Of a stretch of DNA of 64,000 nucleotides, positions 38,811 to 43,542 are shown piece by piece (within the stretch, counting starts at the first letter, position 1; each line of letters opens with the position of its first letter). Origin of the DNA: Escherichia coli (GTDB taxonomy: Bacteria > Pseudomonadota > Gammaproteobacteria > Enterobacterales > Enterobacteriaceae); assembly GCF_030384885.1 (NCBI RefSeq), contig NZ_CP128613.1; one strand, given 5' to 3'. A model generated the notes under the pieces. The model was not told where the DNA came from, did not search any database, and worked only from the letters and a program-made list of their open reading frames with translations. The translations under genes and the position numbers were made by a program.

Positions 38811-39386
38811 ATGCAAAAAGTAAAACTGAACAACGGTATTGAAATGCCCCTGTTGGGCTTTGGTGTATTTCAGATGACCGATGCCGCCGAATGCGAAAGA
38901 GCGGTCATTGACGCTATTAACACCGGTTATCGACTGATTGACACCGCCGCCTCTTATCAAAATGAAATCCAGGTCGGGAACGCACTGAAACAAAGCGGTA
39001 TCGCCCGTAACGAACTCTTTGTCACCACGAAACTCTGGTTGCAGGATACCAGTTACGAAGGGGCCAAAGCCCAGTTCGAACGCTCTCTGAATCGACTGCA
39101 ACTTGATTACGTTGACCTGTACTTGATTCACCAGCCATATGGCGATGTCCACGGAGCCTGGCGTGCCATGGAAGAGCTGCAACAGGCCGGTAAAATTCGC
39201 GCTAATGGCGTCAGTAACTTCCATCCTGACCGACTGGCAGACCTTATCGCTTTTAATAACGTCGTTCCGGCGGTAAACCAGGTTGAAGTTAACCCTTTCA
39301 ATCAGCAGCTGCAGGCCGTTCCCTGGATGCAAAGTCGTGGCATTCAGCCAGAAGCCTGGGCACCGTTTGCGGTTACAGGGCGGTAA
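38811..39386 (+). pseudogene. Truncated aldo-keto reductase (N-terminal ~2/3 only)
   Basis: 191-aa ORF paralogous to the AKR at 31896..32780 but ending before the C-terminal third; may correspond to a ykgQ-type fragment. Confidence 0.6.
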
Positions 39387-39578
39387 GCGATTATGCATCT
39401 ACCTATTTACGTCGGTCACTCAGTCAGAGTCTTGCCCATATTCAATGAGGTTCAACACCGCAGCCAATGAAAAGTAGGCCATGCGGGGATTAATAGCATT
39501 ACTCATTAACCAATCGCTCTTTTCATTTACGTGCTCTTTATGTAACGTATTGCTTTTATTGATCTTCCTAGAGTTTGC

Positions 39579-39935
39579 ATGAATAAGAATCTCATCCTCG
39601 CATTTGCATTATTTTCCTTACCTGTATTTGCAGAAGAAGATCTGGGGCCAGGCAAATATGTTTGTGACATTAGGATTTCCAGCCTGGATACCGCTACTCA
39701 AATTCTGTCAAAATCCGCAACAGTTCTCGATAATGGAAACAATTTCATCGTTCAAATGCCAAATGGAGATCAATTGTACTCTCCAGATCTGGAAAATGTT
39801 GATGATGGTATAAAACAAAAAGCAACAATAGGTGGAGTGACATTTATTCGTCGTCCAACTTTTAACGATCGCTTCATCGTGGAAGATGGAAATACAGGAT
39901 TCTTCTATAAGATGCGAAACTGCGAGAAGAAATAA
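39579..39935 (+). CDS. Small secreted hypothetical protein
   Basis: 118-aa ORF with a signal peptide (MNKNLILAFALFSLPVFA) in an AT-rich context. Confidence 0.5.
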   Translation: MNKNLILAFALFSLPVFAEEDLGPGKYVCDIRISSLDTATQILSKSATVLDNGNNFIVQMPNGDQLYSPDLENVDDGIKQKATIGGVTFIRRPTFNDRFIVEDGNTGFFYKMRNCEKK

Positions 39936-40223
39936 AGGAAGTTTGATAGCGATATCCTCCTGATTTTCAGGCTTTGTACCTGTTCAAGACTTACAACTAC
40001 AAGCCGCTACGTGTTAACGCCTCCCAAAATAACCACCGTTAACCGTAGCGGCCATAGATACTATTATTTTAGCCACATTACTGGTGATAATGATAATTGA
40101 TATTATGGCCGTATAGAAAATAAGTATTAATTATCAGAAAGTTTATTATGTAAACGCGTCCTAATGATTACGTTATTCCTCTTACCGATATTCGCCCAGA
40201 GCAACCATCAATTACACACATCA

Positions 40224-41150
40224 TTAACTTTCTATTTTTACTCTTTTCTCCACCATAAAATCAATAAAAGCACGAACTTTAGAGGGCATTCTCACCCGTG
40301 ATGAAACATAAATATAAAATCCAGGAAATGAAACAGCCCAATCCTCAAGAATCGGCTGTAACTTGCCCGCATTGATATGTTCAGCGATTGCAAAATCCAG
40401 ATGTTGAATGATACCCGTTCCATTCAGCGCCATTCGTATCATGCTTTCGTCATCATTAGAAATATACTTACCTGAAACCTCTATTTCGAACTCTTCATTA
40501 CCCCCCACAACATTAGAAAACTCCCATGCAGAGAGTGCACCGCTACTTTTATGCCGCAACCGAAGGCAATTATGGTTACTCAGTTCCTGAGGCGTTTCAG
40601 GAATACCGTGTTCTTTTAAATAATCTGGCGATGCCACAGTAACCAGTTTAATAAGCGGAGAAACAGGAACGGCAGTCATATGCTCATCCAGTCCTTGCTC
40701 AAGACGTATGCCCACATCACAGCCGTCCGCAATAATGTTAGATAAACCGTCATCCATAATGAGTTCTATCTTTGTTTTGGGGTAACGAGTAAGAAACTCG
40801 CCAATATGAGGCTCAACAAGCATCCGTGCTGCAACACGGGAGGAATTTATTCTCAACAGGCCTGTAGGTTCAAGTTGGGTATCACCAACATCTTTCAAAG
40901 CATCATCAATTTGCCCCAAAGCCGACACCAGCACTTCATACAGACGCTGTCCTTCCTCAGTAAGCGACATATTGCGGGTCGTACGGTATATCAGCTTGGT
41001 GTTAAGACGTTCCTCAAGAGATTTTAAATTCTGGGACAATGCGGCCCGCGTAATACCCATTTCAGAAGCGGCTCTGGAAAAACTGCCGGCACGAACAATC
41101 AGCGCAAACCAGGCAAGAGAAGGCAAAATTGAAGGCTCTATTTTCATCAT
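40224..41150 (-). CDS. LysR-family transcriptional regulator
   Basis: LysR HTH from MMKIEPSIL…; the track ORF has an N-terminal extension; divergent from the hydrolase gene. Confidence 0.8.
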   Translation of the reverse strand: MMKIEPSILPSLAWFALIVRAGSFSRAASEMGITRAALSQNLKSLEERLNTKLIYRTTRNMSLTEEGQRLYEVLVSALGQIDDALKDVGDTQLEPTGLLRINSSRVAARMLVEPHIGEFLTRYPKTKIELIMDDGLSNIIADGCDVGIRLEQGLDEHMTAVPVSPLIKLVTVASPDYLKEHGIPETPQELSNHNCLRLRHKSSGALSAWEFSNVVGGNEEFEIEVSGKYISNDDESMIRMALNGTGIIQHLDFAIAEHINAGKLQPILEDWAVSFPGFYIYVSSRVRMPSKVRAFIDFMVEKRVKIES

Positions 41151-41306
41151 TGTAAACCTTAACTTAACACTGTGATAGATATTAGACCATTGATGATAAC
41201 CAATACAAGTCATACTATTACGCCGTTCTCGATATGAACACAAATGCCAGTTGCGGATAATAGAAATGATATTTAAATCTGTTTAGGCAAATCCCTGGAG
41301 CTTGAA

Positions 41307-42227
41307 ATGAAAACGGTTTCGATAAAACACACTTACTGGGATATAGCTGCTGATATCTATTTCCCTGACGATTTTAATAGTGAAAAAAAGTATCCTGCCA
41401 TTATCAGTGCCCATCCAATTGGAAGCTGCAAAGAACAGACATCGGGTAGTGTGTATGGTGCCGCCCTGGCAAAAGCTGGCTTTATCGTCATTGCTTTTGA
41501 TGCCAGTTTTCAGGGAAGCAGCGGTGGAGAACCGCGTTATCTGGAAGATCCAACAATGCGAGTAAAAGACTTCAGCATTGTCGTTGATTACCTTACCACC
41601 TTACCTTACGTTGATGCCGGGCGTATTGGTGTACTGGGTATTTGTGGTGGAGGTGGATATGCCATTAATGCCGCAATGACAGAACGTCGGATTAAAGCCA
41701 TTGGTACTGTCACGGGTGCAAACTACGGGCGTCTTATGCGTGAGGGATTTACAGCGTTTAATCCTATCGGAGCACTCGAAGCAATGGCGCAACAAAGAAC
41801 AGACGAAGCTAACGGCGCAAAACTTCGCGTAGATGATTTACTCCCCTCTTCTCCGGATGCAGCTCTTGAAGCGGGATTAACAGAAATAGACCTTTTTGAA
41901 GCAACAGAATATTATCGTTCGCCACGAGGCTGTGCGACTAATGGGGTAAATCGTTCGCTATTTTCACATCAGACTGTTGCCGTGGGCTGGGATGCTTTTC
42001 ATCTTGCAGAAGTCCTGTTAACTCAACCACTAATGGTTGTAGTGGGCGATAGAGTGGGCGCTTTTGGTGCCTATCGTGACGGCTGCGAAATTATTGGTCG
42101 TGCAGCCTCAAAACATAAAGAGTTGGTCGTGGTTGAAGGTTATTCACATTACGACCTGTATGATAAGCCAGAACCTGTGAAACAGGCGCTCGATAAATTA
42201 ATTCCTTTTTACAAAACACATTTGTAA
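41307..42227 (+). CDS. Alpha/beta-hydrolase-fold protein (dienelactone-hydrolase-like)
   Basis: 306 aa; a glycine-rich nucleophile-elbow-like region (VLGICGGGGYA) and acidic/His residues near the C-terminus. Confidence 0.7.
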   Translation: MKTVSIKHTYWDIAADIYFPDDFNSEKKYPAIISAHPIGSCKEQTSGSVYGAALAKAGFIVIAFDASFQGSSGGEPRYLEDPTMRVKDFSIVVDYLTTLPYVDAGRIGVLGICGGGGYAINAAMTERRIKAIGTVTGANYGRLMREGFTAFNPIGALEAMAQQRTDEANGAKLRVDDLLPSSPDAALEAGLTEIDLFEATEYYRSPRGCATNGVNRSLFSHQTVAVGWDAFHLAEVLLTQPLMVVVGDRVGAFGAYRDGCEIIGRAASKHKELVVVEGYSHYDLYDKPEPVKQALDKLIPFYKTHL

Positions 42228-42399
42228 TAACCTTGCAGGGAGATTCATTATCTCCCTGAGATTTATCCTTTATTGACTACACAACAATAATGAAATTACT
42301 CAAAAAGAATTCTATTAAAGGAAAAAAGCATCAAAAAGTAGCAACTCAACTTATTAAGATTATACGCATTAAAATCAGATAAACATTTGAGGTATTGTT

Positions 42400-43542
42400 A
42401 TGACAAATAAACACCCATCATTGTTTTCTCCTTTTATGCTGACAGAAAAAATAAAGCTACGTAATCGTATCGTTATGGCCCCTATGACGACCTGGTCAGC
42501 GAATCCTGATGGAACCATCTCTGAGCAAGAACTCGAATTTTATAAACGCCGCTCACAAAATGTTGGTTTAGTAATAACAGGATGTACCTATGTCACGCCA
42601 AGCGGCATTGGGTTTACTCATGAATTTGCCGCATATGACGACCGTTTCATTAACAGCCTTGAAAAGTTAGCAGCGGCAGCCCAAAGTGGGGGTGCTCCGG
42701 CTATTTTGCAGATTTTCCACGCCGGTAATAAAGCCATCCCGGAGCTTGTACCAAATAACGATGTTATTAGTGCCAGCGCATCAAGCGTAAAATCTGGTGA
42801 CTTTATGAAGAGAGTGGTACAAAGCAGGGAAATGACTGAAAACGAAATTCAGGAAACCATTAGAGCATTCGGAGATGTCACAAAAAGGGCGATTAAAGCA
42901 GGTTTTGATGGCATTGAACTTCATGGTGCGCACGGATTCCTTCTACAGAATTTCTTCTCCCCTCTATTTAACCAGCGTAATGACCGATGGGGAGGAGATC
43001 TCGAAGGACGTATGCGCTTCCCGCTGGCCGTATTACAGGAAGTAAAAAATGTAGTCTATGAATATGCGACAAAGCCCTTTGCCATCGGTTACAGAATATC
43101 TCCTGAAGAATCTGCAACAGGGGGGCTGCGGATAGAGGATACTTATAAACTCCTTGATCGGCTCATTTCATCCGGTATTTCGTATATACATACCTCGCTG
43201 GTCAGTATTAACGATAGCTACCCTGTTGAGTCGCCAAATGGCCCCCGAACTATTGAATTGATTTTAAATCATATTGCAGGCAGAGTGCCGGTAATCGCTG
43301 CAGGTAAAATACGCACACCGTCTCAGGCTCAAGAAGCAATTTCCACTGGCCTGCCACTTGTTGCGATCGGTAAAGGGCTGGTGATAAATCCAGAATGGGT
43401 GACTTTAGCTGAATCAGGTAGAGGCCATGAAATTCAAACAACCCTTAATCCACAACTTGTTCCTGAATTAACCATTCCGGATAAACTATGGGATCAAATT
43501 CAGACATCGAAAGGAACTGGCTGGTTTCCGTTAATGGATTAA
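42400..43542 (+). CDS. NADH:flavin oxidoreductase (Old Yellow Enzyme family)
   Basis: 380 aa; the OYE-typical N-terminus (…LRNRIVMAPMTT…) and ELHGAHGFLLQNF active-site region. Confidence 0.8.
   Translation: MTNKHPSLFSPFMLTEKIKLRNRIVMAPMTTWSANPDGTISEQELEFYKRRSQNVGLVITGCTYVTPSGIGFTHEFAAYDDRFINSLEKLAAAAQSGGAPAILQIFHAGNKAIPELVPNNDVISASASSVKSGDFMKRVVQSREMTENEIQETIRAFGDVTKRAIKAGFDGIELHGAHGFLLQNFFSPLFNQRNDRWGGDLEGRMRFPLAVLQEVKNVVYEYATKPFAIGYRISPEESATGGLRIEDTYKLLDRLISSGISYIHTSLVSINDSYPVESPNGPRTIELILNHIAGRVPVIAAGKIRTPSQAQEAISTGLPLVAIGKGLVINPEWVTLAESGRGHEIQTTLNPQLVPELTIPDKLWDQIQTSKGTGWFPLMD

Follow-up and report, generated by a model that had tools for sequence, protein, structure and literature searches.

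A LysR, hydrolase and flavin reductase trio, lost from K-12-type genomes, as a putative inducible unit in the fdeC-ykgR interval of Escherichia coli

The interval between fdeC (eaeH) and ykgR of the Escherichia coli chromosome was analysed in a window of 64,000 nucleotides from contig NZ_CP128613.1 (assembly GCF_030384885.1), to which all positions given below refer. Its core consists of three intact, full-length open reading frames (ORFs) encoding a LysR-type regulator (LysR2), an alpha/beta hydrolase and a flavin oxidoreductase of the Old Yellow Enzyme (OYE) family, which plausibly constitute an inducible hydrolase-plus-reductase unit. Such a unit, located in a variable segment and running a LysR-induced pathway of hydrolase and reductase, is the best explanation of the data and one that we consider moderately probable, the likeliest role being the inducible conversion or detoxification of a compound of the reactive carbonyl, quinone or unsaturated lactone type. 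As a variable segment of the E. coli chromosome the interval is ordinary and has been annotated before; positions 38250-44480 match E. coli 2013C-4282 (NZ_CP027579) with 100% identity, and the RefSeq annotation of that strain places fdeC on one side and ykgR on the other. LysR2 is encoded on the minus strand (40224-41150; 308 amino acids from the RefSeq start, the mechanical ORF reaching 41243; 'LysR family regulator' in RefSeq), and a divergent control region of 156 bp (41151-41306, sequence read directly) separates it from the hydrolase gene on the plus strand (41307-42227; 306 amino acids; 'alpha/beta hydrolase' in RefSeq). The latter is followed by a plus-strand hairpin (42236-42258, from RNA folding and cross-species alignment) and by the OYE gene (42400-43542, plus strand; 380 amino acids; 'NADH-dependent flavin oxidoreductase' in RefSeq). 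A first-pass annotation, made from the sequence alone, had read the interval as an accessory island with a LysR-regulated detoxification or catabolic unit for an electrophilic compound, flanked by a secreted protein and a truncated aldo-keto reductase (AKR). The five genes that it named are each present where it had placed them, both in the ORF list and in the RefSeq annotation, while its interpretation is partly supported, being reasonable but over-specific.

Three haplotypes of the interval were counted among 5426 complete E. coli genomes, with breakpoints taken from pairwise blastn against the Nissle and K-12 loci and with the K-12 junction sequences read directly. The commonest intact form is a long form with two AKRs and a second LysR gene, which in Nissle 1917 comprises AKR1 (283 amino acids), AKR2 (329 amino acids), LysR1 (297 amino acids, minus strand), LysR2 (308 amino acids, minus strand), the hydrolase and the OYE; its 2278-bp segment was found in 1888 of the 5426 genomes. 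The window form, in which a 677-bp replacement stands instead, occurs in 315 genomes, mostly O157:H7 and O55:H7, and the K-12-type junction in 2826, so that the segment is present in about 2200 genomes and absent from 2826. As the first-pass annotation had suspected, the genes are absent from K-12, which lacks positions 38797-43450 (4654 bp; blastn against the K-12 locus), nearly the same interval as had been delimited from the sequence alone. At the K-12 junction ...CGATAAC is joined to ACAACTTG... with a microhomology of 1 bp, and the 90-bp pseudogene ykgP (b4630) is annotated there in MG1655. Its translation (QLVHELTIPDKLWDQIQASKGTGWFPLMD*) is identical in 27 of 29 residues to the last 29 codons of the window OYE gene (43453-43542, including the stop). 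Because ykgP is an in-frame 3' stump of the OYE gene, the K-12 state is a derived deletion: K-12-type genomes lost 4654 bp by one illegitimate deletion, and the segment predates K-12. The polarity implied by the term accessory island is thereby reversed, as the segment was not gained here but lost by K-12-like genomes, as indicated by the ykgP stump and the lack of integrase, insertion sequence (IS) or att scars. Indeed, no integrase, transposase or IS, tRNA or att site was found among the window ORFs or at the borders, nor were there meaningful flanking repeats. The segment does combine presence/absence polymorphism with atypical base composition, as a mobile island would (44-46% guanine plus cytosine (GC) in the trio, 48.4% in the window and 52.6% in fdeC), the absence being a derived deletion. 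A 24-nt imperfect inverted pair around the trio (40221-40244 and 43561-43584, 75% complementary) was considered as the ends of a mobile element and rejected, since the DNA shared with E. albertii (see below) ends at 40238 and 43557, leaving the arms outside the transferred unit; 14 comparable inverted pairs are expected by chance in 6 kb. Further loss is apparent in some O157:H7 genomes, in which the LysR gene has lost its 3' end, ykgR has a frameshift and ISEc8 is found upstream of ykgM, and the interval is a hot spot of erosion. In O157:H7 BB24-1 the AKR fragment, the gene for a 118-amino-acid protein described below and the LysR 3' end are lost, ISEc8 (IS66 family) is situated between ykgR and ykgM, and ykgR is frameshifted.

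Within this eroding segment the LysR, hydrolase and OYE genes form a selectively maintained core. E. albertii NBRC 107761 shares with the window only positions 40238-43557 (85.6% nucleotide identity), which correspond to these three genes, inserted between sapB and sapC together with an AraC-type regulator, a YbcL-like protein and a tyrosine integrase. Since exactly three genes are shared, and at another site, the trio is a portable unit. Between E. coli and E. albertii the hydrolase genes differ by 82 synonymous and 3 nonsynonymous codons and the OYE genes by 109 synonymous and 39 nonsynonymous codons, a pattern which points to purifying selection on both enzymes, strong in the case of the hydrolase. 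These data make it very unlikely that the segment as a whole is a decaying remnant in this lineage, junk that is heading towards the K-12 state and is devoid of current function. Repeated erosion would be in accordance with such decay, given the K-12 deletion in 2826 genomes, the replacement of AKR1, AKR2 and LysR1 in 315 and the O157:H7 deletion into the LysR gene with ISEc8 nearby; however, the ORFs of the trio are intact and full-length in the window, and the hydrolase, with its 82 synonymous against 3 nonsynonymous differences, retains 65-82% identity across phyla, from Proteobacteria and Actinobacteria to Bacteroidota and Lactobacillaceae. The insertion in E. albertii NBRC 107761 splits the sapABCDF operon, and the YbcL-like protein encoded with it is a kinase-inhibitor homologue. 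A 4.4-kb contig deposited as 'MAG: Collinsella sp.' (JAIJJM010000245.1) carries genes for LysR1, LysR2, the hydrolase and the OYE that are 99% identical to those of E. coli, and is almost certainly a contamination of the metagenome bin.

The hydrolase can be assigned to the YcjY/PA2218 family of alpha/beta hydrolases, with Cys113 as the nucleophile and His281 as the catalytic His. It matches the structures of YcjY (PDB 5xb6; E 4e-66, residues 12-304; 41% identity to the K-12 protein) and of Pseudomonas aeruginosa PA2218 (PDB 2hdw; E 5e-43, residues 12-306), while the Pfam matches are weak and partial only, the best being Peptidase_S15 (E 7e-10, N-terminal half), besides dienelactone hydrolase (DLH) and others. 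Full-length agreement with the DLH profile (PF01738) is lacking, as the match covers residues 28-131 only (E 7.5e-5, 22.8 bits). In an alignment of 110 sequences (77 orthologues, 31 adjacent paralogues, YcjY and the window protein) the nucleophile elbow reads G111-I-C113-G-G, with C113 and H281 invariant in 110 of 110 and G111 in 109 of 110, and further invariant positions carry Arg, Tyr, Asp or Glu, among them D65, E80, D88, D94, D103 and D286. A scan of one genome per species recovered 242 relatives, of which the best 80 were kept as loci. Barring three near-identical Escherichia-type sequences, these best 80 of 242 are 61-82% identical to the window protein and are distributed among Burkholderiales, Acinetobacter, Rhizobiales, Mycobacterium/Rhodococcus/Nocardia, Chryseobacterium/Sphingobacterium/Chitinophaga and a Levilactobacillus. 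In many bacteria two or three tandem hydrolase paralogues, about 40-60% identical to each other, are found in one cluster, which suggests subfunctionalised enzymes or a hetero-oligomer.

Dienelactone hydrolase, a Cys-His-Asp enzyme, belongs to chlorocatechol pathways that are typically under LysR-type regulators such as ClcR and TfdR. The window hydrolase shares with it the Cys nucleophile in a G-x-C-x-G elbow and the His partner, and the combination of a hydrolase step with an NADH-dependent reduction under a LysR regulator recalls the established chlorocatechol pathway, where the reduction is carried out by maleylacetate reductase. However, the family is here that of YcjY/PA2218, and the DLH profile is matched weakly and in part only; genes for a catechol dioxygenase or cycloisomerase are found neither among the window ORFs nor in the neighbourhoods of 79 hydrolase loci, and the reductase is a flavoenzyme whereas maleylacetate reductase of chlorocatechol pathways is of the iron type. 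A second likeness is to UilS, an acyl-homoserine lactonase with an alpha/beta fold from Serratia marcescens (NCBIfam NF047920; E 1.3e-20, residues 5-133 of the window hydrolase), which was chosen under the label 'dienelactone hydrolase' and is reported to be a lactonase (PMC11633161). With 74 bits against a cut-off of 400, over the first ~130 residues only, the window hydrolase is not a member of that family, and the match is only a lead towards lactone chemistry.

That the two enzymes are functionally linked is suggested chiefly by the genomic company of the hydrolase. For 79 hydrolase loci the ORFs found within 4.5 kb were all clustered, and the most frequent neighbour, at 42 of the 79, encodes a NAD_binding_10 protein of ~217 amino acids (PF13460, E 1e-53), situated on the same strand directly up- or downstream of the hydrolase gene. 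A LysR-type gene is found at 36 loci, an SDR (short-chain dehydrogenase/reductase) at 21, an aldehyde dehydrogenase at 10 and a zinc-dependent alcohol dehydrogenase at nine, and an orthologue of the window OYE (55-61% identity outside Escherichia) likewise at nine. Outside Escherichia these hydrolase-linked OYE orthologues are found in Acinetobacter, Microbulbifer, Paraburkholderia and Achromobacter. In many Proteobacteria a LysR2-like gene (50-57% identity) lies divergently, ~1.05 kb upstream of the hydrolase start, with LysR2 orthologues in the divergent position in Burkholderiales, Pantoea, Stenotrophomonas and Photobacterium, and in Bacteroidota AraC-type regulators hold the position of LysR. 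The recurring design thus combines a regulator and a Cys-hydrolase with an NAD(P)H reductase whose type varies, and it is this recurrence that argues for a functional link between hydrolase and reductase.

The same layout is found in K-12 at the locus of pgrR (ycjZ) and the divergent genes ycjY-ymjD-ymjC-mpaA, where a LysR gene diverges, as in the window, from the gene for a 306-amino-acid Cys hydrolase, followed by that for an NAD(P)H-type reductase. This locus is a paralogue and not an orthologue of the window unit (the regulators are 31% identical); its reductase partner is a NAD_binding_10 gene cut to the 60-codon ymjC and not an OYE gene, and the ycjY operon runs into the murein peptide amidase gene mpaA, of which the window unit has no counterpart. 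The fragment ymjC, just downstream of ycjY, corresponds to the N-terminus of the NAD_binding_10 family (43% identity over 46 residues), and the locus repeats the design of the window unit as a paralogue that has partly decayed. A derivation of ymjD and ymjC from an OYE gene was rejected, as tblastn found no similarity and ymjC falls into NAD_binding_10. PgrR has been reported to bind the ycjY/ycjZ spacer in SELEX (systematic evolution of ligands by exponential enrichment), its targets including ycjY/ycjZ and the ycjY-ymjDC-mpaA operon (PMC5934670), and is called a regulator of peptidoglycan recycling. By analogy with this locus the window hydrolase could be a peptidase or amidase acting on peptidoglycan-derived or other small peptides, with LysR2 as a PgrR-like repressor, an assignment to which the 41% identity between hydrolase and YcjY, the 31% identity between LysR2 and PgrR, the shared divergent layout and the Peptidase_S15 match (E 7e-10) as the best, although N-terminal, Pfam hit would lend themselves. 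It is nevertheless quite improbable, since no peptide-handling genes (mpaA, ycjG, mppA or a transporter) lie beside the hydrolase in the window or at the 79 loci, where reductases and dehydrogenases recur instead; moreover, YcjY is without demonstrated activity according to NCBIfam and the K-12 annotation, and the nucleophile is Cys whereas S15 peptidases use Ser. An acyltransferase or polymerase function, as in a short-chain poly-3-hydroxybutyrate synthase, is extremely unlikely. The invariant G-x-C-x-G box is common to polyhydroxyalkanoate (PHA) synthases, and YcjY, YsgA and YghX have been proposed from this motif as candidate cPHB polymerases in a review (PMC3709699), but the proposal is based on the motif only, YdcS being the sole enzyme found experimentally for that activity in the same review, and genes supplying acyl-CoA are not conserved beside the hydrolase (the CoA-transferase family is found at 10 of the 79 loci).

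The reductase of the window is, by whole-length homology, a member of the flavin mononucleotide (FMN)-binding TIM-barrel family (PF00724, precomputed for the identical protein), with predicted FMN binding. Among solved structures the closest is Staphylococcus aureus 3l5a (E 8e-46), with YqjM, TOYE and chromate reductase at ~1e-38, and 138 OYE-family chains in PDB align to residues 7-345 at E values up to 1e-3. It is an equivalog of neither NamA (179.1 bits; NCBIfam cut-off 431) nor NemA (118.9 bits; cut-off 403). A word-indexed homologue search returned near-identical E. coli entries only, without distant context, and distant relatives were obtained instead from an exhaustive search of representatives and from the hydrolase-anchored genome scan. 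The window protein was aligned with YqjM and with 16 representatives of its own clade. Its active-site signature consists of P28-M-T-T and H175-G-A-H178-G-F180, and at the C-terminus it has a tail peculiar to the clade, IPxxLW...GWF. H175 and H178 correspond to H164 and H167 of YqjM, H175 being invariant (18 of 18) and position 178 being H or N, and the key columns recur in the HMMER alignment to TOYE. All nine hydrolase-linked OYE orthologues carry HGAHGF and PMTTW, and the closest relatives have H-x-x-H-x-F whereas more distant members of the clade have H-x-x-N-x-Y. With YqjM/NamA, TOYE and 3l5a the protein thus shares the PF00724 TIM-barrel, a ~330-residue alignment and the His-x-x-His pair, but it is only ~31% identical to YqjM, has Thr for Cys26 (PMTT against PMCM) and Phe180 for Tyr169, and instead of the YqjM-type C-terminal Arg finger has the clade-specific 40-residue tail ending in GWF. 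A regulator-controlled reductase of the OYE family makes electrophile detoxification, as by NemR-NemA, the natural guess. In that system the repressor NemR is of the TetR type, NemA belongs to the classical OYEs with a Tyr donor, and nemRA has no hydrolase gene. The window unit differs in all these respects, its regulator being LysR-type, its OYE lacking the Tyr donor and a hydrolase being part of it.

The regulator can be placed among the LysR-type transcriptional regulators (LTTRs) by full-length matches, to the YafC model (positions 8-292 of 293, E 7e-57; score 193 against a cut-off of 470) and to PDB 3hhg (residues 8-292, E 2.5e-37). Orthology to YafC, TtdR, AaeR, GcvA or PgrR was not found, all NCBIfam equivalog scores being below cut-off and the identity to PgrR being 31%. 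The divergent arrangement of LysR and hydrolase genes noted in the first-pass annotation is borne out, with its spacer of 156 bp, and the regulatory link between them gains comparative support from the divergent LysR2-like gene of many Proteobacteria and from a conserved block near the start codon. When the spacers of E. coli, E. albertii, Pantoea, Photobacterium, Achromobacter, Cupriavidus, Burkholderia and Paraburkholderia are aligned without gaps from the lysR start, the invariant positions read TGTxAA-N8-TA-N3-CTGT-N2-T-N4-ATT at a fixed distance from that start. Inside this block lies TAACACTGTGATA (41165-41177; T-N11-A, an imperfect dyad), a candidate LysR binding site. The hydrolase ATG is preceded at 8 nt by a GGAG Shine-Dalgarno sequence. 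A consensus promoter scan gave 15 sigma-70-like sites against 14.4 in shuffled sequence, and within the LysR-hydrolase spacer it placed sigma-70-like hexamers on the minus (lysR) strand only and none on the plus strand, an outcome that is uninformative by itself but consistent with an activator-dependent hydrolase promoter.

In the proposed mechanism LysR2 would bind the 156-bp divergent region, with 41165-41177 as candidate site, and together with a small-molecule co-inducer would activate the hydrolase promoter, which has no recognisable -35/-10 pair. The hydrolase would use its Cys113-His281 pair, as dienelactone hydrolase does, and its likely reaction is the opening of an ester, lactone or thioester bond in a small molecule, which is probably carboxylated in view of several invariant Arg residues. 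An NAD(P)H-dependent reductase would act on the same compound or its product, the partner being interchangeable across bacteria, an OYE here and the 217-amino-acid NAD_binding_10 protein in most others. The OYE gene might be transcribed by read-through of the conserved hairpin or from a promoter of its own, and the coupling of hydrolase and OYE in one pathway is what we infer from the recurring design.

Several observations weigh against this mechanism. The OYE is a minority partner of the hydrolase (9 of 79 loci) and the NAD_binding_10 reductase a far commoner one (42 of 79). At the position of the proton-donor Tyr (OYE1 Y196, YqjM Y169) the window OYE and its closest relatives have Phe180, which weakens the case for classical ene-reduction and, with it, the first-pass suggestion of alpha,beta-unsaturated carbonyls as substrates; ene-reduction may still take place, but quinone, nitro or other hydride- or electron-transfer chemistry becomes at least as likely. 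The OYE-type flavin ene-reductase of the first-pass annotation accordingly stands as to its family (PF00724) and the His pair, and falters on the replacement of the donor Tyr. In the hydrolase the usual acid position after strand 7 (position 248) is Asp in 73 of the 110 aligned sequences, Ser in 30 and Gly in 3, and no third member of the triad was assigned. More than half of the E. coli genomes have done without the unit (2826 of 5426 with the K-12 junction), which is therefore dispensable, and the literature on YcjY, ykgP, PA2218 and the fdeC/ykgM/LysR region yielded only listings of YcjY and no study of these genes. Finally, a conserved hairpin and a variable, AT-rich spacer of 172 bp separate the hydrolase gene from the OYE gene, so that the two may not form one operon, and their co-transcription is uncertain. 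The hairpin (CAGGGAGAT-TCATT-ATCTCCCTG) begins 8 nt after the hydrolase stop and has a 9-bp stem followed by a broken T-tract; its predicted RNA fold has -15.3 kcal/mol and z -4.2, none of 200 shuffled sequences being as stable. In E. coli, Escherichia sp. E1V33 and E. albertii the stems are invariant and the loop is variable, while the rest of the spacer is rich in indels except for the last 45 nt before the OYE start, which are conserved. The element was not called by a simple terminator scan, and it may be a leaky terminator or a 3' stabiliser. The spacer of O55:H7 has ~62 extra bp. Of the co-regulation of all three genes, proposed in the first-pass annotation, the LysR-hydrolase half is thus favoured by the comparative data, whereas the hydrolase-OYE half is called into question by the hairpin, the spacer and the nine loci of 79.

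The same features would be expected if hydrolase and OYE were unrelated neighbours, with LysR controlling the hydrolase (or itself) alone and the OYE being a general stand-alone reductase (NAD(P)H:quinone, nitro or flavin) that is expressed from a promoter of its own. This would agree with the hairpin directly after the hydrolase stop, with the indel-rich spacer and its conserved last 45 nt, with the low number of loci at which the OYE adjoins the hydrolase, and with Phe in place of Tyr, which suits electron-transfer reductions that need no Tyr. We consider it unlikely, however, because the pair was not separated when it was transferred between its sites in E. coli and E. albertii and recurs, with the clade-specific OYE signature, in the unrelated genera Acinetobacter, Microbulbifer, Paraburkholderia and Achromobacter, because loci without an OYE have another NAD(P)H reductase in its position, and because no sigma-70-like promoter was found in the hydrolase-OYE spacer by consensus scan.

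Beyond the inducible unit of the window, a more general proposal, which is offered tentatively and with limited confidence, would be that a Cys-His hydrolase and an interchangeable reductase, usually with a divergent LysR, form a widespread two-step pathway for one specific metabolite or toxin. The reductase would be the Tyr-less OYE clade in Escherichia, Acinetobacter, Paraburkholderia and Microbulbifer and the NAD_binding_10 protein in most bacteria, and K-12 ycjY-ymjC would be a decayed copy of the pathway. As an observation on this genome the segment matters little, since annotations of it exist for thousands of E. coli genomes and K-12 lacks it through a simple deletion. The analysis nevertheless accounts for ykgP as the 3' stump of a flavin reductase gene and for ymjC as what is left of the reductase partner in the paralogous ycjY locus, provides three fdeC-ykgR haplotypes that could serve as lineage markers, and points to a very widely conserved enzyme pair. 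If this pair handles one defined compound, a function would be given to YcjY/PA2218-type proteins across many phyla, and the Tyr-less OYE clade, with a possibly non-classical chemistry, would be of interest to biocatalysis. If the widespread pathway exists, the E. coli genes would be a tractable entry point to the conserved pair.

The remaining genes of the interval, which the first-pass annotation had described as flanking the unit, are not parts of it; the AKR fragment and the gene for the 118-amino-acid protein are by-products of a separate 2278-to-677 bp replacement. The AT-rich replacement segment (39373-40049; 677 bp, 40% GC) stands in place of 2278 bp of the long form; AKR1 has thereby lost its last 96 codons, and AKR2 and LysR1 are gone altogether. 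What remains of AKR1 (38811-39386, plus strand; 191 amino acids) is annotated in RefSeq as an aldo/keto reductase pseudogene, 'missing C-terminus'. It is identical in 185 of 187 residues to residues 1-187 of the intact 283-amino-acid Nissle AKR, followed by 4 foreign codons and a stop, and it matches NCBIfam DkgA at E 1e-54 over profile positions 6-193 of 275. A complete (alpha/beta)8 barrel of ~275-285 amino acids, with its C-terminal NADPH-binding strands, is hence not retained, and the loss of the C-terminal third recognised in the first-pass annotation is confirmed by the end of the match to the 283-amino-acid allele at residue 187.

The 118-amino-acid protein (39579-39935, plus strand; hypothetical protein in RefSeq) is an orphan. 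Its N-terminus (MNKN / LILAFALFSLPVF / A-EED, mean Kyte-Doolittle value 2.6) has the features of a textbook Sec signal, with predicted cleavage at VFA|EE, and two Cys residues, C29 and C115, are conserved. No match was found in Pfam, NCBIfam or PADLOC, and PHROGs gave only E values above 0.01; a large protein collection contained 17 relatives, all named ones being enterobacterial (Siccibacter, Enterobacter, Klebsiella and Cronobacter). With 33-37 synonymous and 21-22 nonsynonymous codon differences from its homologues, the ORF is a real gene. The AlphaFold model is all-beta and confident (pLDDT 87), and fold searches with it returned only generic small barrels, in keeping with a predicted small all-beta barrel. 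In Enterobacter and Siccibacter the gene is found at the edge of islands that bear an integrase or are P4-like (Ogr/Delta, primase). Since the DNA similarity to those islands is limited to the gene and up to 185 bp upstream, it resembles a small mobile cargo gene, and it looks as if it landed here as such during the illegitimate replacement. Near the right end of the 677-bp segment an imperfect inverted repeat (GCCGCTACGTGTTAACG ... CGTTAACCGTAGCGGC, 39990-40040) may be a terminator-like or recombination-related hairpin.

Known RNA families were not detected in 38200-44600, where Rfam gave no match even at an E value of 1, and none of the PADLOC anti-phage models matched the four proteins of the interval. 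Beyond the OYE gene the annotation of 2013C-4282 lists ykgR, ykgM, ykgO, ecpR and ecpA. On the other side fdeC/eaeH (33992-38245, minus strand; RefSeq annotation of 2013C-4282) is intact in the window and encodes 1417 amino acids, while its K-12 counterpart is an IS3-interrupted pseudogene. The gene ykgL (~44919-45146) is annotated as a pseudogene with an internal stop here, is frameshifted in Nissle and is intact in K-12.

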